40,422 bases of DNA from a virus (IMGVR_UViG_2563366920_000004); one strand, 5' to 3'. Positions 1 through 35,631 are shown, numbered from the stretch's first letter. The notes: generated from the letters alone by a model not told the origin. Made by a program: numbers and translations.

Positions 1-174
1 ATGCGAAAACGACACCGATTTAACAGTCGCATGACCCGTATCGTACTGCTCATCAGCTTTATCTTCTTCTTTGGCCGTTTTATCTACTCGTCCGTCGGTG
101 CCTGGCAGCACCATCAGAGCAAAAAAGAAGCTCAGCAATCCACACTCTCCGTCGAATCACCGGTACAACGTTAG
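1..174 (+). CDS. small membrane protein (57 aa), below the ORF-track size cutoff
   Basis: ATG at window position 1, open frame to TAG at 172-174; basic N-terminus followed by one hydrophobic helix (IVLLISFIFFFGRFIY). No RBS visible because the upstream region is outside the window. Confidence 0.3.
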   Translation: MRKRHRFNSRMTRIVLLISFIFFFGRFIYSSVGAWQHHQSKKEAQQSTLSVESPVQR

Positions 175-484
175 CGGTTACCTTCTCCACTCTCACAGAA
201 CATAACGGCACCTCGCTGTCGGATGCTTTTGCTCTTTGAAATTATCAAAGCGGCAGATATTCTTTCATCTTAAATTTTACGTCTTTGTTCTGACTGAAAT
301 TCATCCTGTTCGGCTGCGAAATAAATACATCATTAATACATATGTTGTGATGATGTATTTTTATAAATTATTTCCCACATGAATTTTAATAAATTTAATC
401 TATTCCTTTATACGCAATACATTTACTTTCCTCTTTTGATGATCTTAAATGTCTTATTTTTCGTAATGTGTATAACAAGGAATA

Positions 485-1003
485 GTGATGAAATTTAAAA
501 AATGTCTTCTGCCCGTGGCAATGTTAGCGTCATTCACTCTGGCAGGATGCCAGTCAAATGCTGATGATCATGCCGCCGATGTTTATCAAACCGATCAACT
601 GAATACCAAACAAGAAACTAAAACCGTTAATATTATTTCCATTCTTCCCGCAAAAGTTGCCGTAGACAACGCCCAAAATAAACGGAACGCACAAGCCTTC
701 GGCGCGCTTATTGGCGCTGTCGCTGGCGGTGTTATCGGCCACAACGTCGGGTCTGGCAGCAATTCCGGAACGACGGCAGGTGCAGTTGGCGGCGGAGCTG
801 TAGGCGCGGCAGCGGGTTCTATGGTGAATGATAAAACCTTAGTGGAAGGTGTTTCTTTAACATATAAGGAAGGCACCAAAGTGTATACCTCCACCCAGGT
901 GGGTAAAGAGTGCCAGTTTACGACAGGTTTAGCCGTTGTTATTACCACGACGTATAACGAAACGCGTATTCAGCCAAATACCAAATGTCCTGAAAAGAGC
1001 TAA
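485..1003 (+). CDS. lipoprotein with glycine-zipper domain (YcfJ/SlyB-like outer-membrane lipoprotein family)
   Basis: Signal peptide ending in lipobox LAGC; Gly/Ala-rich stretch GALIGAVAGGVIGHNVG...GAVGGGAVGAAAG typical of glycine-zipper lipoproteins; AAGGAA RBS before ATG; AT-rich upstream region. Confidence 0.6.
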   Translation: MMKFKKCLLPVAMLASFTLAGCQSNADDHAADVYQTDQLNTKQETKTVNIISILPAKVAVDNAQNKRNAQAFGALIGAVAGGVIGHNVGSGSNSGTTAGAVGGGAVGAAAGSMVNDKTLVEGVSLTYKEGTKVYTSTQVGKECQFTTGLAVVITTTYNETRIQPNTKCPEKS

Positions 1004-1018
1004 TAATCAGGAGGAGTC

Positions 1019-1558
1019 ATGAAGAAAGTTTTTCTTTGCGCCATCTTAGCCTCCTTAAGCTATCCGGCTATCGCCTCATCATTGCAGGATCAACTCTCGG
1101 CTGTCGCAGAAGCGGAACAGCAAGGTAAAAATGAAGAGCAAAGGCAGCATGACGAATGGGTCGCGGAGCGCAACAGGGAAATCCAGCAAGAGAAGCAACG
1201 TCGCGCAAACGCCCAGGCCGCGGCTAATAAAAGAGCGGCAACGGCAGCAGCGAATAAGAAAGCTCGTCAGGATAAACTGGACGCCGAAGCCACTGCGGAC
1301 AAAAAACGCGATCAAAGTTATGAAGATGAGCTACGTAGCTTAGAGATTCAGAAACAAAAACTGGCGCTGGCGAAAGAAGAAGCCCGCGTTAAGCGCGAAA
1401 ACGAATTTATCGATCAGGAACTGAAGCACAAAGCTGCGCAAACCGATGTGGTGCAATCTGAAGCTGACGCAAACAGAAATATGACTGAAGGCGGTCGCGA
1501 TCTGATGAAAAGCGTGGGTAAAGCAGAAGAGAATAAATCAGATAGCTGGTTTAACTAA
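1019..1558 (+). CDS. secreted, highly charged coiled-coil protein of unknown function
   Basis: Sec-type signal peptide (MKKVFLCAILASLSYPAIASS); remainder rich in K/E/Q/A/R; AGGAGG RBS 6 nt upstream; starts 16 bp after the preceding gene (operon-like). Confidence 0.5.
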   Translation: MKKVFLCAILASLSYPAIASSLQDQLSAVAEAEQQGKNEEQRQHDEWVAERNREIQQEKQRRANAQAAANKRAATAAANKKARQDKLDAEATADKKRDQSYEDELRSLEIQKQKLALAKEEARVKRENEFIDQELKHKAAQTDVVQSEADANRNMTEGGRDLMKSVGKAEENKSDSWFN

Positions 1559-1596
1559 ACGATGTTAGTAACTTCAAACCTATAATTCTTTAGGAT

Positions 1597-1630
1597 AAAA
1601 AACCCTCTGTAGTAACAGAGGGTTTTGTTC
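1597..1630. terminator. bidirectional intrinsic terminator between convergent genes
   Basis: AACCCTCTGT-AGTA-ACAGAGGGTT hairpin flanked by an A-run upstream and T-run downstream; lies between the 1019..1558 (+) and 1776..2258 (-) gene ends. Confidence 0.6.
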
Positions 1631-1775
1631 ATTCATAGTGCAGGGTCAAATCATTCCCACTCAATTATTTACGACAATCATAACCAATTGAGTGATAACA
1701 TTTTTCCAAAGTTCAACTTTTCCCGTACCGTTTTATATACCGTCACCGGAAATCAGTGCCATGAAAAATACCATG

Positions 1776-3879: not shown

Positions 3880-6800
3880 TTAACGTTCTTCCAGAGACTG
3901 AATCCGCTCTTTTATCTTATCCATTTCTCTGCGCTGCCATGCTGCCTCGATATAGAATAAGAGATCAGGTCTGACCCCCCATCTAGATCCTGCTGGCGTT
4001 ATTTCAACGCGCTCAATGATGTCTTCCATTACCATCACTGGATTATCATCCTCATCAACAATGATGCTCCCGTCATTATCAGTCAGCGGAATTTCCCTTT
4101 GGCCAGTAATGACGTCATCATATACTGCGGGATAATCGTCATAGCAAAGAAAGGCATAGCGGCATGTTGTGCTTTCTTCTTCCATGAGTCCGTGAGAAAT
4201 AAGAACATCACGAAGTTGCTGCGCGATTACACCATGATGTATCCTCGCCCCTTCTTCTCCCTTTATAGCGACAGCGTTCAGCCATTTATAAGCGATATAC
4301 CTGACGTCACCCCAGGCATCCAGCAATGCTTCGTCAGGAGAGACCGGCTCTGTCTTTAATGTTCCGTCACTGGTAACCACAGGATTGGAGCCAAGATAAA
4401 CTGTCGAGAACCTGTTTCCCGGACCACCAAGAGCATTTACATTATCAAGATAAGGTTTAACATCTCCGTTCTCAAAAAGATGTTCGAGTGCGTTATATAC
4501 CGCGCGACGTGGAGTACTGCTTCTGGAACCATGCAACGTTATCATTGCACCATCTGCTGAAGACGTTGTTTCACCGCCGCTAACGATTAATCTCTGAGCG
4601 GTAACATCATCAGACGGTACTTTCTTCGCAATAATGGCGTAATTACCCTCAAGTTTGACTTCCGCGCGAACTTGTCCTGATGTACCTGCATGGACAGTCA
4701 GTGACTGGACGGCAACATCATCTGTGAAATCAACGGGTACAGGAACCGTCCTCACGCCTGACGTCGACATAAAAGTAGGAAGCGTTCTGTTAGGAGTGGC
4801 TCCGTAGACAAAATCCCTTGAAACAAATTCTTCCTGTTTAATTTTCACCCTGAAACAATACAAATCAGCCGGGTGACCATCGTGAACATAAGGATATTTT
4901 CTGTTGTTATCCCCTATGCTCCATGGGTTTAGAAAGTCTTCCCCACCGAAAATGTAGTACAGCCAGTTGTCTTTGATACAAACTGAACCAACACCAACCG
5001 CAGAGTTAACTATTCCGCCCTGATAAATCTGATCAGTAACATTAACCCACTCTACATTATCCAGACTCCACTCATTGACGTTAACTCTGGTCATAAATGT
5101 TCTTGGATAGTTTCCTGCATAACGGTTATCAGGTTCTCCTCCTTCCCACTCACCAAATGCGCGCTCACTGCCAAAAATAATCAGCTCATCGCCAACTTTG
5201 GCAAAAGGAAGGTTTGAGTGATGAACATTATTTGGGAAGCGAAGAGAATTCCATGATGTACCTAAATCAGAGCTTCTGTGCAATGAACTACCGGGTTGAG
5301 TACTTAATGTCCCCCTGGTCGTCAGATACAGAATGCCATCATAATATTTTACACATGGCTCAGATGCATTCGCCTCATATTCTGCAGGTATGCGTCTGCG
5401 AACAAAGCTACCAGGAGAACCGAAAGCATCAGAGAAATAGAGTATCCCAAGCTCGCGTGGACCAATATCACCATTATGGTAGCCAACAGCAAAACTGTTA
5501 TCGCTAATCGTCGCAAAACTGTGAATCTCAGTAACAGGAGTGCTTCCGTCAACAAAAGAAGGAATAGTTCCAAGACTGGTTTTTCTCCATGGTGACGAGT
5601 GAAATGATGTACCAAAACTCCAGTATCTACCCTCGTTATTCTGATCCACATCCTGGGTATTTTGCGTCGTAACTGTAAAAGTATTTTTATCAATAACAGT
5701 AGTCACCGTCATATTCCCGGTAACACCTGTAACACCAGAGTTTGAGAAGTTGACAAAATCACCAGCAAATAATCCGTGATCAGTAATGCGAATATAAGCG
5801 ACTTGCTGATTTGCTGCTTTCGTTATACCACCATAAACGCGAAGGCTGCGACTCATTGGGCGATCCCACAACTCTGCAACCTGCAGTTTATTTCCGCTCA
5901 CGGTCCGCGTCTCAATTACAGCAAAAAGGCGATTTCTGACAACCCCCATACTCATGCAGTGATAGTTAACTGTGGGATAGTTTTCATGTAAATCTGTAAG
6001 CCATTCCGGCGTTGTCCAGGTCTTCCCGTCATCTCCTGAGCGAACCCATGCAACATGGAGGTTATTTACACCATGGCGGTCTCCAGCCATAAAAGGCGCA
6101 TAGATGACATTGTCATATACAAACGTTTTATCCTGCGTCCAGGCGTTGTACCACGGTGTATCTGTAATTTTAAATAACTCTCCCTGGATAAAATCTTCAG
6201 AAGCATAAAAAAGAGGCTGACCCGGTATTCTCTCAAATAAAAAACGAGCATTTTTAAATCGGCTGACATCCGGAAGAGTTGATACTTTAAAAGTAAGCCC
6301 TAATCCGTCAATTTTATAACCTGGAGATGAGGCTTCAAGGCACGCGCTTATTGCAGTGGAATCGTCATTTATACCATCACCAACAGCTCCAAAATCTTTG
6401 GGGCTAATAGCATCACGCATTTTATCCTGGAACGTTCGGTACACAGCCCCAGAACCATACTGAATAAACCAACCAAAACCACCAACAACCCCGGCGATTG
6501 CAGCATCGACATAATTACGCATTGAGCGATTATTTACAGCGTCCTGTTCAAGTGATGGATCTGCAAGGTTAGAAATTTTGTTTTGCTTTGCATCGTAATA
6601 TTTTGCAAGCAAAGATGGTTTCATCAATGCACGTCTGAACCACCCAAAACATTGCTGGATCAGCATCGTCAGGTAGTCAAAAGCATCTTCATGCACTTCG
6701 GGGAAAAATTTTCCCTGATTGCGAAGGTCTGTCTCCTGCACTACATCAAGCACACGATCTATCGTAATTCGCCATCCAGTAGCAAGCGGCGACGGAAGAA

Positions 6801-7102: not shown

Positions 7103-7119
7103 ATTACCTTTCGGGTAAT
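7103..7119. promoter_or_regulatory. operator-like palindrome ATTACC-TTTCG-GGTAAT
   Basis: Perfect TTACC-N5-GGTAA inverted repeat in the divergent region between the tailspike start and the SOS-box gene. Confidence 0.6.
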
Positions 7120-7155
7120 TTGCAAAACGTGCTGGATAGCAAACAAATTATTTGA

Positions 7156-7175
7156 TACTGTATAAATATACAGTT
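7156..7175. promoter_or_regulatory. LexA (SOS) box TACTGTATAAATATACAGTT
   Basis: CTGT-N8-ACAG core with an AT-rich spacer, close to the E. coli LexA consensus; about 20 bp upstream of the ATG at 7195. Confidence 0.7.
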
Positions 7176-7194
7176 ATTGCATGGAGAAGATAAG

Positions 7195-7452
7195 ATGCAG
7201 CAGTATCACTATCCACTGGAAGACGGATTTACCGAAAGGATTCACACGCCGGGAGGCGTCAGATCACTGGTGGAGGGATCGCACTTGATGAAATTACTCC
7301 GGGATCTCGATAAGGATGGATTTAATGTCGATGGCCCACTTGCCGAACTGACTGCACTGATTAACTACGTCACCAGCTCACAGATGTCTATGCAGGATCT
7401 GCAAACACATCTCGACTATTGTGCCGAACAATTACGAAAACAAACCACATAA
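7195..7452 (+). CDS. small antirepressor-like protein (paralog of the Bro-N antirepressor C-terminal domain)
   Basis: ATG at 7195 with GGAG RBS 8 nt upstream (track ORF begins at a TTG at 7177); C-terminus LMKLLRDLDKDGFNVDGPLAELTALINYVTSSQMSMQDLQTHLDY aligns with the C-terminus of 8598..9290. Confidence 0.65.
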   Translation: MQQYHYPLEDGFTERIHTPGGVRSLVEGSHLMKLLRDLDKDGFNVDGPLAELTALINYVTSSQMSMQDLQTHLDYCAEQLRKQTT

Positions 7453-7490
7453 AGAAAAGGCCGCTCTAGCGGCCTATCGTTTCGCTTTGT
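7451..7490. terminator. bidirectional intrinsic terminator
   Basis: GGCCGC-TCTA-GCGGCC hairpin with A-run upstream and T-rich tract downstream, between convergent genes 7195..7452 (+) and 7474..8202 (-). Confidence 0.55.
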
Positions 7491-8202
7491 GCTCGTCCCA
7501 GCACGTTTTGCACCATGCCATTAAGCCGTCCGCATTTTGATTATTAGGGTAAAAGCTAGTTCGTTTTCTGCGGACATTACAAATTGGGCACCACTTCATA
7601 TGGCGTGTATTCTTTGGGCCATCGAGACACCTTGCACACCACTTAGTCAATCCATCTGGATTTTTTGACGATTTCCTGAATTTTTCATATGGAAGGTTTA
7701 TTCTGCATCGCAAGCACTGCTTGCTACCACTTGAAACTCTGTTAGCTGATTCTTCTTTTGGCGGCGATACAGAAGGTATTCTTGCTGGCTCTGATACTGC
7801 CTGAGGTGCTTTTTTAGATGACTGAGACGATATGTCATCACCAGGGAATCTTCCATGATATGCCGGACGCGTTGACACTCCGGGTGGAAGCTCAGCTGTA
7901 AACGGCTTTGGCTGAATCAGTTGCCTCTCTTTTGCTAACTCCTGCTGTTTATAATATGTCTGGATTACCGCGCTATCATAAGCAGGAGGTACGGAAATAT
8001 TAGGCGCATTATCTCCCGTTTTTTGAAACTGAGTGGAGGTGTGTTCTATCACCTGTGTACGATTAATCGTTATCTCCCCATCTTCAGTCTTTATCGTTTT
8101 GTTATGATTAACGACCGTACGATCAGAGATCTTAGTCTTGTTCTGGTTGATAACGTAAATAATCACCGCAACCACACCAACAACTACCCAGAAAACTTCC
8201 AT
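7474..8202 (-). CDS. membrane-anchored protein with C-terminal tandem CxxC zinc-ribbon repeats, unknown function
   Basis: N-terminal transmembrane helix (VFWVVVGVVAVIIYVI), long Pro/Ser-rich linker, C-terminal duplicated motif C-x2-C ... DGL-x2-WC-x2-C; GAGGAAAGG RBS before ATG. Confidence 0.6.
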   Translation of the reverse strand: MEVFWVVVGVVAVIIYVINQNKTKISDRTVVNHNKTIKTEDGEITINRTQVIEHTSTQFQKTGDNAPNISVPPAYDSAVIQTYYKQQELAKERQLIQPKPFTAELPPGVSTRPAYHGRFPGDDISSQSSKKAPQAVSEPARIPSVSPPKEESANRVSSGSKQCLRCRINLPYEKFRKSSKNPDGLTKWCARCLDGPKNTRHMKWCPICNVRRKRTSFYPNNQNADGLMAWCKTCWDEHKAKR

Positions 8203-8222
8203 TGCCTTTCCTCACAATAACA

Positions 8223-8237
8223 TTACCTTAAAGGTAA
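8223..8237. promoter_or_regulatory. operator-like palindrome TTACC-TTAAA-GGTAA
   Basis: Perfect palindrome 21 bp upstream of the 7474..8202 start codon, in the divergent region shared with the Bro-N gene. Confidence 0.6.
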
Positions 8238-8315
8238 TATCTTGCTTTCAGGTGATCAAGCGTTAAACGCAATCAACCAAATACGGTTGATTTTAATATT
8301 TCTTCGCGTTTATCA

Positions 8316-8330
8316 TTACCTTTGCGGTAA
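8316..8330. promoter_or_regulatory. operator-like palindrome TTACC-TTTGC-GGTAA
   Basis: Second perfect copy in the same divergent region. Confidence 0.6.
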
Positions 8331-8424
8331 ATTTACATCGCACTCCTCTTGTGCCATAGTAATCGGGCACTGGCAAAATCCAGTGCCGGGATTGGTCTCC
8401 CGGATTACTACAGAGGCACATATG

Positions 8425-8443
8425 CCGCATAAGCGGTTTTTTT
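8425..8443 (+). terminator. intrinsic terminator-like hairpin plus T7 run inside the Bro-N gene leader
   Basis: CCGC-ATAA-GCGG followed by TTTTTTT; preceded by two further GC hairpins (about 8365-8403); lies about 155 bp upstream of the Bro-N start. Confidence 0.45.
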
Positions 8444-8597
8444 ATGTGTAAAGCGCACCTATTCTATGGTGGGCTGTGTGGGGGCACCGAAAGGTGCGCC
8501 GGGTTCCTTTGTAGCCGGTAAGACCAACTCTGCACAGTTCACCACCATCTGATTGGTCTCAGCGGTGGTGATTAACCTAACTACAAAGGTGATCGCC

Positions 8598-9290
8598 ATG
8601 AATACCAAACCTTCCATCTTTTCCTTTGAGTCATCCTGCCAGATCCGTATGTTCATGATTGACGGAGAACCTTGGTTTGTCACCAAAGATGTGTGCAATG
8701 CTTTGAATATTGATGTTACACAAGCGAGAAAACTTGATAAAAAAGGCTGGAACAAAAAGGGGCTGTATTCAATACAGACCCCTGGTGGAATACAAGAACT
8801 ATCCATCGTTTCAGAATCAGGTCTCTACATCCTTATTCTGCGTTGCAAAGAGGCAATGACTGAGGGAACGAGAGCATTCAGATTTCTTGAATGGGTTACA
8901 GGTGAGGTTCTTCCTCAGATCCGCCGCACCGGAAGTTACATTAAAAACTCGCTCCCGCAGGAAGAACGCATAAAGATGGTTGCCGACCAGGTAGCCAACG
9001 CCACAGCATCAGCAGTGATGCAGGCAATGAAGATAGAGAACAAAACCTACAGTGCCCCGCTGAAGCCCGGCTACCGCAGCCTGATTCATTCTCCGTCTGG
9101 TGTTCTCGGCCTGACGGAGAACTCATTGCTTATGAATCTGCTAAACCAGTTACAGGAAGACGGGCACGACGTATCGGGCGCGGCGGCGGAGCTGACCACC
9201 ATGTTCTGCTACATCGTCGGTGTGAGCAAATGCCTGCGTGATATCCAGACGCACGCGGAGTACATCAACGACAAGGCAGGGTTCTTCTGA
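8598..9290 (+). CDS. Bro-N domain antirepressor
   Basis: Start set at internal Met (MNTKPSIFSFESSCQIRMFMIDGEPWFVTKDVCNALNI...) of track ORF 8553..9290, with AAGGTGA RBS; N-terminal Bro-N pattern; C-terminal domain paralogous to 7195..7452. Confidence 0.75.
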   Translation: MNTKPSIFSFESSCQIRMFMIDGEPWFVTKDVCNALNIDVTQARKLDKKGWNKKGLYSIQTPGGIQELSIVSESGLYILILRCKEAMTEGTRAFRFLEWVTGEVLPQIRRTGSYIKNSLPQEERIKMVADQVANATASAVMQAMKIENKTYSAPLKPGYRSLIHSPSGVLGLTENSLLMNLLNQLQEDGHDVSGAAAELTTMFCYIVGVSKCLRDIQTHAEYINDKAGFF

Positions 9291-9297
9291 CGGCGGC

Positions 9298-9320
9298 GGC
9301 ACAGGGATGTGCCTTTAAAT
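9298..9320 (+). terminator. intrinsic terminator after the Bro-N gene
   Basis: GGCACA-GGGA-TGTGCC hairpin followed by TTTAAATAATT. Confidence 0.45.
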
Positions 9321-9361
9321 AATTCTGTACGATTGCAGACCGGGGGGTGAATAGAGTACTA

Positions 9362-9376
9362 TTACCTTACGGGTGA
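9362..9376. promoter_or_regulatory. operator-like palindrome, one mismatch (TTACC-TTACG-GGTGA)
   Basis: Imperfect copy of the TTACC-N5-GGTAA motif immediately downstream of a possible -10 (TACTAT). Confidence 0.45.
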
Positions 9377-9413
9377 TCCATAGCGATTAGGCACCGATAC
9401 AGGAGGAGCCCAC

Positions 9414-9446
9414 ATGAGAAAATTTGACGAGTACGAAGGCGTTTAA
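9414..9446 (+). other. 10-codon leader ORF (MRKFDEYEGV) with strong RBS
   Basis: AGGAGGAG 5 nt upstream of ATG; ORF ends 19 nt before a GC-rich terminator hairpin that directly precedes the 9506 gene. Confidence 0.35.
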
Positions 9447-9464
9447 CATTCGGATAGTTTAATG

Positions 9465-9487
9465 ACGGGGCCATTAGGCCCCGTTTT
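9465..9487 (+). terminator. leader terminator/attenuator hairpin
   Basis: ACGGGGCC-ATTA-GGCCCCGT (8-bp GC stem) followed by TTTC; ends about 19 nt before the GTG start at 9506. Confidence 0.5.
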
Positions 9488-9505
9488 CATGTCTGGAGAC
9501 AGTTT

Positions 9506-10045
9506 GTGTTAAGTGAAGAAATGCAATTTGCCATGGCTGTGGCTCAAATCGTAAGTGCAGTCGCGGTTTCGCTTGGCTTGTTCATAGCTATCGCTACTAT
9601 TATTTATAATGTAAATACAGCGAGAAAAGTACACACTTCAGTATTCCTTGGTGAAAGCAGGTTTGATGTAGATTATAAGAAAGGCCTATCTACTATGCGC
9701 CGCATTCACGAGTCGAACAAATCATTCCGCTCTTATATGTATCCAAGCAATGGGCAGGCTGATCTTACGGATGAAGAAAAGATAGAGAAGAGAGAAATAA
9801 TTTACTGTCTAGGTTTCTACGAACGCATGGCTGTGAGCGTGAAGCGGAAAACTTATGATGAGACCATGATTAAGGAAGTATTTTACAGCTCCGTTGTAAA
9901 TAACTATCAGATTGCGCTACCTCTTATACAAGCTATTAGAGAAAAAGAAAACATAAACACATATTTTAAAGAATATGAATGGTTGGCCACACGATGGAAG
10001 GATTGTCCATTGAAGGATAAATCCCCGTGGTACAAGTTTTGGTAA
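9506..10045 (+). CDS. single-pass membrane protein of unknown function (candidate superinfection-exclusion/abortive-infection moron)
   Basis: GTG start with GGAG RBS 7 nt upstream; N-terminal transmembrane helix (AVAQIVSAVAVSLGLFIAIATIIY) then ~140-aa soluble domain; visibly AT-rich; strong terminator immediately downstream. Confidence 0.6.
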   Translation: MLSEEMQFAMAVAQIVSAVAVSLGLFIAIATIIYNVNTARKVHTSVFLGESRFDVDYKKGLSTMRRIHESNKSFRSYMYPSNGQADLTDEEKIEKREIIYCLGFYERMAVSVKRKTYDETMIKEVFYSSVVNNYQIALPLIQAIREKENINTYFKEYEWLATRWKDCPLKDKSPWYKFW

Positions 10046-10066
10046 GCCCGCGCTGCGGGCTTTTTT
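10046..10066 (+). terminator. intrinsic terminator
   Basis: GCCCGC-GCT-GCGGGC followed by TTTTTT directly after the stop codon of 9506..10045. Confidence 0.7.
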
Positions 10067-10104
10067 GTGTCTGCGGATTCCCGCCCGGGTGGCGGTGGCA
10101 TTCG

Positions 10105-10130
10105 TTAAAAACAAGGCCGCGAAAGCGGCC
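10105..10130 (-). terminator. intrinsic terminator for the minus-strand late operon
   Basis: GGCCGC-GAAA-GCGGCC hairpin; on the minus strand it is followed by a U-run (plus-strand TTAAAAACAA); just downstream of the 10138..10989 stop. Confidence 0.6.
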
Positions 10131-10137
10131 TGTTTGA

Positions 10138-10989
10138 TCACTGTGCAGTTTTCGCTGATCGATTTTCAGCTCTAAATTCAAGAACCGTTTCAATATTTCT
10201 TTCCTTCAGCATATCAATAACATTTTTATTCATTTGACTATCACTGGTTAATAACTGGTAAACGTTGCTTCTCTCTTTATCAGAATTTTCTTTAACAGCT
10301 GCTTTGCATGCCAAATGCTTATTGAAATTTTCTACATCGCTAGTACAGGAATTTACGGCTGCTGATGAAATATCAGACGCTGAAGAAACACCATCATCCA
10401 AACGTTTTATAGCATTTTCTATACATGAGTTAAGGGAATAAACGACAACTGAGCGATACCCTTCAGACGCACACCATTCTAAATTTCTTGAAGGATCGAG
10501 TGGTTTTACTTCGCTGGATTGAATTAACTTGTCAAAAACTGACTTATATTCAATCTGTTTTTTATCTATAGCCCATACTTCAGTAGCTGATTTATAATTC
10601 CCCGTATGCCTATTAACATCAAATCCATGTTTTATAAGCAAATCTGCCCATGAAAGATTTATTGATTCATTGTTATGAGGCCATTTTCCTGTCAGAACCG
10701 CCCCCATAGACCCCATATATCCGCCATATGATGGTATAGCACCATGGCTCAGTAACTTCTCAGCAACCACAGGGCAATTAATTACATAAGAGGCGTAAAG
10801 CCCATTCCATAAAGCCCCTCTATAGTAATCGCCACGATTAGGTTCTTTTAAGTCGATAGCCTTTGATAATTGTTCACACGTTTTGCATGCATCAAAGTTA
10901 TCCTTATTGCATTGCAATGAACTGGCGGCTGTAGGATTTACAGAGACTATTGAAAGCACTATGCCAAAAAACAAATTTATTTTTTTCAT
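10138..10989 (-). CDS. secreted protein of unknown function at the end of the virion-protein operon
   Basis: Sec-type signal peptide (MKKINLFFGIVLSIVSVNPTAASS); start 1 nt after the stop of the 1129-aa gene; visibly AT-rich compared with flanking structural genes. Confidence 0.55.
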   Translation of the reverse strand: MKKINLFFGIVLSIVSVNPTAASSLQCNKDNFDACKTCEQLSKAIDLKEPNRGDYYRGALWNGLYASYVINCPVVAEKLLSHGAIPSYGGYMGSMGAVLTGKWPHNNESINLSWADLLIKHGFDVNRHTGNYKSATEVWAIDKKQIEYKSVFDKLIQSSEVKPLDPSRNLEWCASEGYRSVVVYSLNSCIENAIKRLDDGVSSASDISSAAVNSCTSDVENFNKHLACKAAVKENSDKERSNVYQLLTSDSQMNKNVIDMLKERNIETVLEFRAENRSAKTAQ

Positions 10990-26761: not shown

Positions 26762-26838
26762 GTGGCATTAGCTCAGTTGGACAGAGCAACCGCCTTCTAA
26801 GCGGTTGGTCGCAGGTTCGAATCCTGCATGCCACGCCA
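26762..26838 (+). tRNA. tRNA-Arg (anticodon UCU), phage-encoded
   Basis: Cloverleaf traced by hand: 7-bp acceptor stem GTGGCAT/ATGCCAC, D-arm GCTC/GAGC, anticodon stem ACCGC/GCGGT with loop CTTCTAA, T-arm GCAGG-TTCGAAT-CCTGC, discriminator G and encoded CCA. Confidence 0.85.
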
Positions 26839-28977: not shown

Positions 28978-29570
28978 TGATTACCATCCTGACGTTCTTT
29001 GAGTCGCTTCCTGGCTGCCGCTATGCGATCAGCAATTGTCACATTCACATTAACATCCAGTCGTTCTTTGAATGCGTTGACGTCGACGTGCTTACCAATC
29101 AGTTCGAGGTTCTTCACCTTGTCAGGCCATTTAATTTTTTTGAGGATTGTCTCTATCGAATCCTCGTTCATGTTCATGATGGTCGATGACAGATCAAAGC
29201 CGCTAAGCGTAGTGCGCCAGATTTTCGGCCACTCGCGGATTGGCTTAAGGCTCCCATCGTCGTTGAGGATATCAATCACGTCCATCTGGTCGATCTCCAC
29301 CAGGCGCATGAGAACGTAATCAGCACTGACGCGCATTCGTTTGTTGCGCTCCTCCATCAACTCGGCAATCCGTTTCTGAATGCGTTCATCGCGCATCATG
29401 ACACTGGCTTTAACTGCCGCTGTATTTGGGGAGAATCCTGCATTAATCGCAGCCTGAGTCTGGTTTTCAGGCGTTTTGATGTATGACTGGCAATAAGCCT
29501 CCTGCATTGCTGTTAGTGGCTTAAATTGCGTTGATTTGCGTTTATAGGCTTTAGGTTCAGCAGGCATCAT
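28974..29570 (-). CDS. terminase small subunit
   Basis: Start moved to internal Met-27 (MMPAEPKAYKRK...) of track ORF 28974..29648; the track's TTG-initiated N-terminal extension covers a non-coding operator palindrome. Confidence 0.6.
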   Translation of the reverse strand: MMPAEPKAYKRKSTQFKPLTAMQEAYCQSYIKTPENQTQAAINAGFSPNTAAVKASVMMRDERIQKRIAELMEERNKRMRVSADYVLMRLVEIDQMDVIDILNDDGSLKPIREWPKIWRTTLSGFDLSSTIMNMNEDSIETILKKIKWPDKVKNLELIGKHVDVNAFKERLDVNVNVTIADRIAAARKRLKERQDGNQ

Positions 29571-34353: not shown

Positions 34354-34584
34354 TCATGAGTAGAAGAAGTATGCCAGTTCTGCTTTTGAGCGCAGCCATT
34401 GTCTTGTTTTACAGGCTTTAAAAAGCCCATTCATCAATACCTTACCTGGCATTTTGCGCTTGCCTGTTAAGTGAGTCTGGATATAGTGACTCGTCGTTCC
34501 GGCTTCCTGTGCGAAGGCTTCACGCTCATCCGGAGTAAGTGCAAGCCAGTGCTTTTTGAAATCGAAATGTCCGTTATCGCTCAT
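34354..34584 (-). CDS. Cro-like HTH regulator (YdaS/Cro family)
   Basis: 76 aa; HTH-like segment LTPDEREAFAQEAGTTSHYIQTHLTGKRKMPGK; divergent from the repressor gene. Confidence 0.6.
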   Translation of the reverse strand: MSDNGHFDFKKHWLALTPDEREAFAQEAGTTSHYIQTHLTGKRKMPGKVLMNGLFKACKTRQWLRSKAELAYFFYS

Positions 34585-34620: not shown

Positions 34621-34683
34621 TCACCCATAAGGTAACAAAAATCAAGGATAGTTACCTATGAGGTGCATTTACCTGTTGGGTAA
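34621..34683. promoter_or_regulatory. right-operator-like cluster of three palindromes between Cro-like and repressor genes
   Basis: TCACC-CATAA-GGTAA (34621..34635), TTACC-TATGA-GGTGC (34652..34666) and TTACC-TGTTG-GGTAA (34669..34683) in the 154-bp divergent intergenic region. Confidence 0.65.
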
Positions 34684-34738
34684 TATTGCTTTAAATTGAA
34701 TCATCTACTGATTCATATATGAGGCGATTTTCCAGAAA

Positions 34739-35323
34739 ATGAAAAGTATCCAGGACGTCCGCAGGCAAAATCTCAACGACTTGATCGACCGTGAATTCAA
34801 TGGTGTTCAGACGCGGATGGCAGAAAAACTTGGAACTCAGGCAAATCTGGTAAACCGCTGGGCTCTTGGCAAGAAGGTTATCGGCGACCAGGTTGCGCGA
34901 AAAATTGAAGCTGCCGCCAATAAACCCCGTAACTGGCTTGATATCGATCGCTCGCTTTCTCAGGAAGGTTTTCAGCCTGTCGGACCAAGCGACATTGGTC
35001 AACTGGCGGCTCACAACCTGGAACGCTGGATGAGCGAAAGCCGCGACCTTTCAACACAGGGAAAACTTCACCGTGCATCCGGCGTCGCCCAGGTGACAAT
35101 CAGCCGCCTGTTAAACAATGAGGTCAGCGTTTCCATTTCCACCCTGGAGAATGTTGCATCCGCATTCGGGCGTCACGGCTATGAATTACTGATTCACCCG
35201 CACGACCCTGCGACCATCAACTATGACCGCTCGCGCTACGCATTGTTACCCGAAACCGAGAAAGCAAAGATCGAAAGTTACATTGAATTTGTCATCAACC
35301 AGAACGAAAAAAACAAACAATAA
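34739..35323 (+). CDS. immunity repressor with two tandem XRE-type HTH domains and no S24 peptidase domain
   Basis: 194 aa; HTH-like segments QTRMAEKLGTQANLVNRWALGKK and ASGVAQVTISRLLNNEVSVSISTLENVASAFG; no Ala-Gly/Ser-Lys autocleavage signature; GAGGCG RBS. Confidence 0.7.
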   Translation: MKSIQDVRRQNLNDLIDREFNGVQTRMAEKLGTQANLVNRWALGKKVIGDQVARKIEAAANKPRNWLDIDRSLSQEGFQPVGPSDIGQLAAHNLERWMSESRDLSTQGKLHRASGVAQVTISRLLNNEVSVSISTLENVASAFGRHGYELLIHPHDPATINYDRSRYALLPETEKAKIESYIEFVINQNEKNKQ

Positions 35324-35367: not shown

Positions 35368-35380
35368 ATTGCCTGTTCGA

Positions 35381-35457
35381 TTACCTAATAGGTAATTTTT
35401 TCAACTCATATCTATTGACATCAAACCAGATACGCATAATTATTACCTCAACGGTAA
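35381..35457. promoter_or_regulatory. left-operator-like pair flanking a TTGACA promoter for the early-left operon
   Basis: TTACC-TAATA-GGTAA (35381..35395) and TTACC-TCAAC-GGTAA (35443..35457) on either side of TTGACA (35415..35420) and an AT-rich -10 region. Confidence 0.65.
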
Positions 35458-35631
35458 CAGACCGAGATAACAAGTTATGCAGTGGAAAATCATCAACGGT
35501 TGGTACTGCGTTACTGCATGCGGATTCATGAGCTGGAAATTCCGCACCTTACAGGAAGGCATTAAGTGGGCTTTCGTCAGCAAAGAAGCTCGCGATGTGG
35601 CCAACGATAACGAGATATGGGAGGGCTGATA

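Follow-up and report, generated by a model that had tools for sequence, protein, structure and literature searches.

A putatively LexA-repressed antirepressor gene as the probable SOS-sensing arm of the lysis–lysogeny switch in an epsilon15/phiV10-like prophage of Escherichia coli

RESULTS

The window analysed here, a 40,422-nucleotide stretch of viral DNA (IMGVR_UViG_2563366920_000004), very probably carries the SOS-sensing arm of a lysis–lysogeny switch, in which an 85-aa antirepressor (Ant) repressed by host LexA would inactivate the non-cleavable repressor (Rep) of an epsilon15/phiV10-like prophage. A LexA box lies in front of ant and is conserved among relatives, Ant and Rep are orthologous to the crystallised Ant–Rep pair of phage SPC32H, and Rep lacks an S24 domain; LexA binding to the box, the promoter hexamers of ant and the binding of Ant to Rep are predicted for this phage. 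A preliminary description of the locus had proposed induction by an SOS-derepressed antirepressor, and this logic appears well supported by the mechanism that has been annotated and solved for the orthologous SPC32H genes. The features discussed below are collected in Table 1.

Identity of the prophage

The window matches the Uetakevirus phages phiV10, TL-2011b, vB_EcoP_ZX5 and EC.W1-9 at 91–98% DNA identity, contains a match to ATTGAGTGGGAATGATT, which has been described as the attachment core of phiV10, epsilon15 and ZX5 (PMC9782041), and ends in an integrase gene. On these phage matches, the attachment core and the terminal integrase gene, the window reads as an integrated E. coli prophage of the epsilon15/phiV10 type (Uetakevirus), flanked by ∼1.6 kb of host DNA on its left. 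The three ORFs of this flank resemble, as we presume, E. coli yfgG, yfgH and yfgI, next to guaA. Such a flank would fit integration at the 3′-end of guaA, as reported for ZX5 (PMC9782041). A tRNA-Arg gene (anticodon TCT; 26762-26838, + strand) is found inside the prophage.

Table 1. Features of the prophage switch region, the neighbouring insertion and the host flank (window coordinates; 'aligned phages' are the ten phages of the intergenic alignment described in the text)
Feature	Position	Strand	Remarks
Host flank	1-1665		Attachment core at its end; flanking ORFs of 57, 172 and 179 aa
Attachment core ATTGAGTGGGAATGATT	1649-1665		Sequence match to the reported phage core
Operator-like perfect palindrome ATTACC-N5-GGTAAT	7103-7119	none	Between the tailspike gene and ant; in 10/10 aligned phages
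Putative -35 TGGATA	7133-7138	+	In the nearly invariant alignment block TGCTGGATAG; 17 nt upstream of TACTGT
Putative -10 TACTGT	7156-7161	+	First six bases of the box; conserved in the alignment; analogy to 186 p95
LexA (SOS) box TACTGTATAAATATACAGTT	7156-7175	none	18/20 match to the consensus; unique in the window
Shine-Dalgarno GGAG	7183-7186	+	8 nt before the ATG; invariant in the alignment
ant, 85-aa antirepressor, ortholog of SPC32H Ant	7195-7452	+	Identity, PDB and PHROG matches
G+C-rich hairpin, GGCCGC-N4-GCGGCC core	7458-7475	none	Terminator scan; likely bidirectional terminator
3.5-kb insertion relative to SPC32H	7474-10989		Between ant and the virion genes; carries the Bro-N module
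Membrane-anchored protein with zinc-ribbon/endonuclease VII-like motifs	7474-8202		In the insertion; convergent to ant
Control region of the Bro-N gene	8315-8549	+	Operator-like palindrome, promoter-like site, isrK-type RNA, C4 RNA
Operator-like palindrome of the Bro-N control region	8315-8331		Abuts the promoter-like site
Promoter-like TTTACA-17-CATAGT	8332-8360	+	Promoter scan
isrK-type leader RNA	8367-8443	+	Rfam isrK, 74.7 bits (gathering score 50)
Target repeats a1, a2	8390-8399, 8551-8560		Face the C4 loop AGACCAA at 8521-8527
Target repeats b1, b2	8408-8416, 8581-8589		Face the C4 loop CCTTTGTAG at 8506-8514
C4 antisense RNA	8462-8549	+	Rfam RF01695, 78.6 bits (gathering score 45); full model covered
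Second antirepressor, Bro-N with Ant-like C-terminal domain (ant paralog)	8598-9290	+	Pfam, PHROG and PDB matches
DUF4760 protein	9506-10045		In the insertion
283-aa ORF	10138-10989		In the insertion; N-terminus reads like a signal peptide
Operator-like palindrome TTTACCTGTTGGGTAAT	34668-34684	none	Between rep and the divergent cro-like ORF 34354-34584
rep, 194-aa immunity repressor, predicted target of Ant	34739-35323	+	PDB 5D50_A and Pfam matches
Two operator-like palindromes downstream of rep	35380-35396, 35442-35458	none	First perfect, second with one mismatch

A unique LexA box upstream of ant

The preliminary description had placed a near-consensus LexA box with a CTGT-N8-ACAG core some 20 bp upstream of a gene of about 85 aa, and both the site and its position were borne out. 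The 20-mer TACTGTATAAATATACAGTT departs from the E. coli LexA consensus, TACTGTATATATATACAGTA, in 2 of its 20 positions, has both cores of an E. coli-type SOS box intact around the spacer ATAAATAT, and ends 19 nt before the ATG of ant at 7195. It is the sole site in the 40-kb window with three or fewer mismatches to the consensus. The looser core CTGT-N8-ACAG occurs three times in the window against 0.59 expected, and the remaining two sites have G+C-rich spacers and lack the AT-rich spacer of the box. Given that the region is AT-rich and intergenic, the match might be thought a chance palindrome with no function, but this explanation is effectively refuted, since none of 100 dinucleotide-preserving shuffles contained a match at up to three mismatches and the CTGT and ACAG cores are retained across genera, in the alignment described below and in further prophages, while the spacer varies.

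The tailspike–ant intergenic region was aligned for ten phages of Escherichia, Salmonella, Enterobacter and Klebsiella, and the box occupies the same columns in all ten, SPC32H included. A box 19 nt before an ant ortholog is also present in prophages of Citrobacter, Erwinia dacicola, Pseudocitrobacter and Scandinavium, which share the order tailspike gene–box–ant with the ten aligned phages. Relatives from Klebsiella, Kluyvera and Superficieibacter have ATGT for CTGT in the left half-site (TATATGTATATATATACAGTA), with the right half-site intact; these relatives thus lack a base that is normally essential for LexA binding. No box was found upstream of the ant homolog of Morganella (35% identity).

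A natural variant of the box is provided by the lytic phage variant SPC32N: a comparison with SPC32H over the 1052 bp around ant gave just two differences, and one of the two is a C-to-A change in a half-site, where SPC32N has AAAG for ACAG. The two phages are said, in work by Kim and Ryu from 2013, to differ by two nucleotides genome-wide, and a point mutation in the LexA box reportedly made Ant constitutive and the phage lytic in the same study. The C-to-A change in the SPC32N box fits this account of the lytic mutant.

The box has no orientation of its own and lies, together with conserved blocks and an operator-like palindrome, in a 195-bp intergenic region that ant shares with the tailspike gene, so it could be asked whether it mainly controls the divergent leftward tailspike/lysis genes (6999 downwards) and not ant. 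We consider this very unlikely. The tailspike ATG is 157 nt from the box, compared with the 19 nt that separate the box from the ant ATG, and the operator-like palindrome lies between box and tailspike gene; the gene adjacent to the mutated SPC32N box is named ant in the record; and LexA boxes normally overlap the promoter that they repress.

The ant gene and its putative promoter

Ant is 88% identical (tblastn) to the product of SPC32H ant (KC911856, SPC32H_020), and the SPC32H and SPC32N orthologs are annotated 'ant: anti-repressor protein' (KC911856/KC911857). PDB entry 5D50_E, 'Anti-repressor protein', matches residues 2-85 of Ant with an E value of 1.3e-47 (phmmer). Ant has 100% identity with TL-2011b gp47, 97.6% with phiV10p24 and 84.5% with epsilon15 gp19, of which the first two carry the annotation 'hypothetical protein'. 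It matches phrog_450 ('unknown function', 1.4e-47), and a Pfam search of Ant returned only a sub-threshold DUF724 match, with no family covering the protein.

A scan for sigma-70 consensus promoters returned nothing at the box. We propose TGGATA-17-TACTGT as a weak ant promoter with its start inside the box, a position at which LexA would block RNA polymerase directly. This pair was retained because both hexamers are conserved and because coliphage 186 uses TACTGT in the same way: in the 186 record, these first six bases of the LexA box are the annotated -10 of the SOS promoter p95, and by analogy the TACTGT of the window box could serve as a -10. Several other hexamer pairs, picked by eye, were rejected.

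The G+C-rich hairpin downstream of ant is likely to terminate transcription in both directions, from ant and from the convergent ORF 7474-8202. An equivalent hairpin follows ant in SPC32H, and the one in epsilon15 is annotated as a terminator. Since the hairpin separates ant from the convergent ORF, ant is a one-gene unit, and the locus has the SPC32H-type gene order, in which ant is divergent from the tailspike gene and forms a single-gene unit with a hairpin terminator.

The repressor and its putative operators

The preliminary description had assigned two HTH domains and no S24 autocleavage domain to the immunity repressor, which agrees with our domain searches. Rep matches PDB 5D50_A ('Repressor') over its full length (residues 1-190, E = 4e-42). 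The C-terminal half of Rep scores 38.5 bits against Pfam HTH_3 (cutoff 23), and the N-terminal half has a weak match to a YdaS/Cro-like HTH. Pfam gave no S24 domain in Rep at E values up to 1, and tblastn searches of the entire window with LexA and lambda cI (manually entered queries) gave no S24-like match better than E = 2.7. Rep is 100% identical to the repressors of phiV10 and vB_EcoP_ZX5 and 41.8% identical to SPC32H Rep, with 54% identity in the N-terminal domain and 38% in the C-terminal domain. The C-terminal domain of Rep is reportedly the main contact for Ant, as described by Kim and co-workers in PNAS in 2016, and in view of the divergence from SPC32H Rep (42% overall), most marked in that domain, Ant–Rep binding in this phage is predicted purely by homology. 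The difference in identity to the SPC32H partners, 88% for Ant against 42% for Rep, suggests either contact through a small conserved patch or some other constraint on Ant.

Palindromes of the form ATTACC-N5-GGTAAT with up to two mismatches occur 15 times in the window against 1.24 expected, an approximately 12-fold over-representation. Eleven of the 15 lie between mapped ORFs (at 7103, 8222, 8315, 9361, 26424, 32319, 32381, 34283, 34668, 35380 and 35442), and two further 17-bp palindromes, at 29569 and 29587, are inside the ORF taken as the small terminase subunit. The epsilon15 RefSeq equivalent of the 7103 site is annotated as protein_bind 'repressor, lysogeny', and three epsilon15 equivalents of the sites downstream of rep are likewise annotated as repressor binding sites. 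Upstream of rep, paired equivalents are present in SPC32H (1114 and 1131 in the sequence extract) and epsilon15. The palindrome thus recurs at equivalent places in SPC32H and epsilon15, even though the repressors are only 42% identical, and a putative recognition stretch, NLVNRW, is common to the divergent repressors. We regard these repressor-operator-like sites as putative Rep operators.

A model for SOS induction through Ant

In the lysogen, host LexA would sit on the box at 7156-7175, over the -10 and start region of the weak TGGATA-17-TACTGT promoter, and this overlap is proposed to keep ant silent. DNA damage would activate RecA, LexA would cleave itself and ant would be transcribed. The 85-aa Ant would then bind Rep (34739-35323), which, having no S24 domain, is not expected to be cleaved with the help of RecA, and Rep would leave its ATTACC-N5-GGTAAT operators, releasing the prophage into lytic growth. 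A passage in a review, citing Kim and Ryu 2013, describes such an Ant as made after LexA self-cleavage and as inhibiting the repressor by protein–protein contact (PMC7380047), and passages in two other reports describe a tetrameric Ant that binds two Rep dimers and breaks the DNA-binding Rep tetramer (PMC9638917; bioRxiv 10.1101/2025.11.27.690993). Mitomycin C lifts the titre of free vB_EcoP_ZX5 from 1e7 to 1e9 PFU/ml (PMC9782041), and the Ant of ZX5 is identical to that of the window over 84 aa, alongside its fully identical Rep. In the window prophage, part of the induction could be carried by the Bro-N gene 8598-9290, whose product has the same C-terminal domain as Ant.

The presence of this second protein with an Ant domain, together with the drop in identity to SPC32H from 88% for Ant to only 42% for Rep, could also be read to mean that the LexA–ant unit is not the main inducer. 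Rep would then have diverged, induction would proceed via the Bro-N/Ant-like protein or another route, and Ant would be vestigial or act on a different or co-resident repressor. This alternative is unlikely in our view: the phage records with ant (35) and those with rep (37) are essentially one set; every close relative with ant conserves the ORF along with the box and promoter block; the phiV10 Bro-N gene is frameshifted in its Ant-like domain, yet ant and box are intact; and SPC32H has no Bro-N gene at all. One experimental result in its favour is that overexpression of the ZX5 Bro-N antirepressor changed the prophage titre, which fell from 1e9 to 1e6 (PMC9782041). We favour LexA-repressed Ant, acting on Rep, as the SOS-responsive arm of the switch.

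The Bro-N gene and its C4 RNA module

The preliminary description had aligned the small protein with the C-terminal domain of the Bro-N protein, and the alignment was recovered at residues 149-222 of the 8598-9290 product (42% identity over 74 aa, E = 7e-16). The same domain matches PDB 5D50_E (E = 9e-14, residues 149-225), and PHROG assigns the protein to phrog_130, 'anti-repressor Ant', as well as to phrog_450 over residues 147-228; the Bro-N domain itself occupies residues 16-106 (Pfam, 1.8e-13). In phiV10, this gene (4766-5445 in the extract) is annotated as p23 plus p22 owing to the frameshift inside its Ant-like domain, and the small ant and its box are intact.

The Bro-N gene is not under the LexA box. 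It is preceded by the isrK-type and C4 RNA module listed in Table 1, and the b2 target repeat of this module lies over the ribosome-binding site of the gene. In TL-2011b and phiV10, the targets are TTGGCGT, facing ACGCCAA, and CTAAAAGG, facing CCTTTTAG; the C4 loops and all four targets therefore change together between the window and these phages, as compensatory changes. Such matched changes point to at least two C4 specificity alleles among E. coli relatives, and this covariation resembles the way in which P1 and P7 differ in immunity specificity. Duplex energies calculated for the whole C4 molecule and its target barely beat those of shuffled targets (9 of 300 reached the observed value), so the exact loop/target repeats and their covariation were used instead. 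No icd/orf45-type coupled frame was found at the start of the Bro-N gene, where the only candidate, 28 codons within C4 (8466-8552), ends 45 nt short of the ATG at 8598.

The Bro-N module forms part of the insertion relative to SPC32H, which has neither the Bro-N gene nor the C4 module. A PADLOC search of the four proteins of the insertion next to ant returned no match. The equivalent of ORF 7474-8202 appears in the TL-2011b record as a misc_feature, 'similar to hypothetical protein', without a CDS.

A possible arrangement, which we put forward tentatively and as somewhat less probable than its negation, is that the two antirepressors share one Rep-binding (Ant) domain and answer to different signals, namely DNA damage through LexA and a C4 antisense RNA, with the Bro-N/Ant copy serving as positive feedback that locks induction or as a superinfection sensor. 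If this were true, the copy could lock in induction once Rep starts failing, or it could alternatively sense a superinfecting relative that carries a different C4 allele. Ant is far better conserved (88%) than Rep (42%), and a single Ant might for this reason also induce several related prophages of different immunity in trans.

DISCUSSION

Coliphage 186 Tum and the Gifsy prophages had been named as precedents in the preliminary description; the logic is indeed alike, but the proper precedent is the Ant/Rep/LexA switch of SPC32H, and homology to Tum is absent. The genetics and structure of the SPC32H switch were reportedly described by Kim and Ryu in 2013 (J Virol) and by Kim et al. in 2016 (PNAS); the structures of that system are PDB 5D50 and 5D4Z. 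The two phages share an orthologous Ant (88% identity), a LexA box placed 19 nt ahead of ant and a tailspike gene divergent from ant. Their repressors are homologous two-domain proteins without S24, and ATTACC-N5-GGTAAT sites are found around rep and next to ant in both. The phages differ in that the window has a divergent rep allele (42%), identical to that of phiV10 and ZX5, in the box spacer, which is ATAAATAT here and ATGTTTAT in SPC32H, and in the 3.5-kb insertion after ant with its C4-controlled Bro-N/Ant-like gene. The Ant–Rep complex has been solved for the SPC32H pair (PDB 5D50), and with Rep 42% identical, equivalent binding is predicted for the window proteins. The system is already known through SPC32H; it is an E. 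coli copy of a published switch and introduces no new principle.

In coliphage 186, according to the annotations of its record, a LexA box over the promoter -10 drives an antirepressor, Tum, that blocks DNA binding by a non-cleavable repressor. The 186 box TACTGTATGTTTATACAGTA (9045-9064) and the SPC32H ant box TACTGTATGTTTATACAGTG (2956-2975; extract coordinates) agree at 19 of 20 positions, spacer included, and the genes downstream of them are unrelated. Ant was considered as a Tum homolog and rejected, as BLASTP gave no credible alignment (E = 0.07). Tum is a protein of 146 aa with nested starts and belongs to phrog_189 (DinI-like), whereas Ant belongs to phrog_450, and the repressors of 186 and the window are also unrelated. 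Ant would work like Tum, but the lack of similarity and the different PHROG families place it outside the Tum family, and it is a member of the SPC32H Ant family.

For the Gifsy prophages, passages in two publications describe GfoA and GfhA as LexA-controlled small antirepressors that act on uncleaved repressors, and in trans on other prophages (PMC3121763; PMC7380047). A tblastn search of 50,697 phage records with Ant gave 35 matches, confined to Uetakevirus-like phages and a few Klebsiella prophages; no Gifsy-labelled record was among the 35.

The Bro-N gene has likenesses of its own. As in the immI region of P1 and P7 (c4, icd, ant), matches to the C4 and isrK models above their gathering scores lie directly upstream, the paired a and b targets are complementary to the two C4 loops, with b2 placed over the ribosome-binding site. 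Its arrangement also matches Gifsy-1 isrK-orf45-anrP, in which an antirepressor gene downstream of the isrK promoter is transcribed from it but, at rest, not translated (PMC4825925). Unlike both systems, the Bro-N gene has no icd- or orf45-type frame across its start, and the C-terminal domain of its product is Ant-like in the sense of SPC32H and not like P1 Ant.

The two-antirepressor wiring is a side finding that deserves modest follow-up, and the practical value of this analysis lies in an annotation gap. The 2022 study of ZX5, a phage nearly identical to this one, tested only the Bro-N protein as an anti-repressor and left the small ant unnamed (PMC9782041). Of 5426 complete E. coli genomes, 529 carry the gene with its box, and the product is called 'hypothetical protein' in all matches listed. 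Naming ant predicts that these common prophages, which include relatives of phiV10 and of TL-2011b from pathogenic strains, would be SOS-inducible through Ant.
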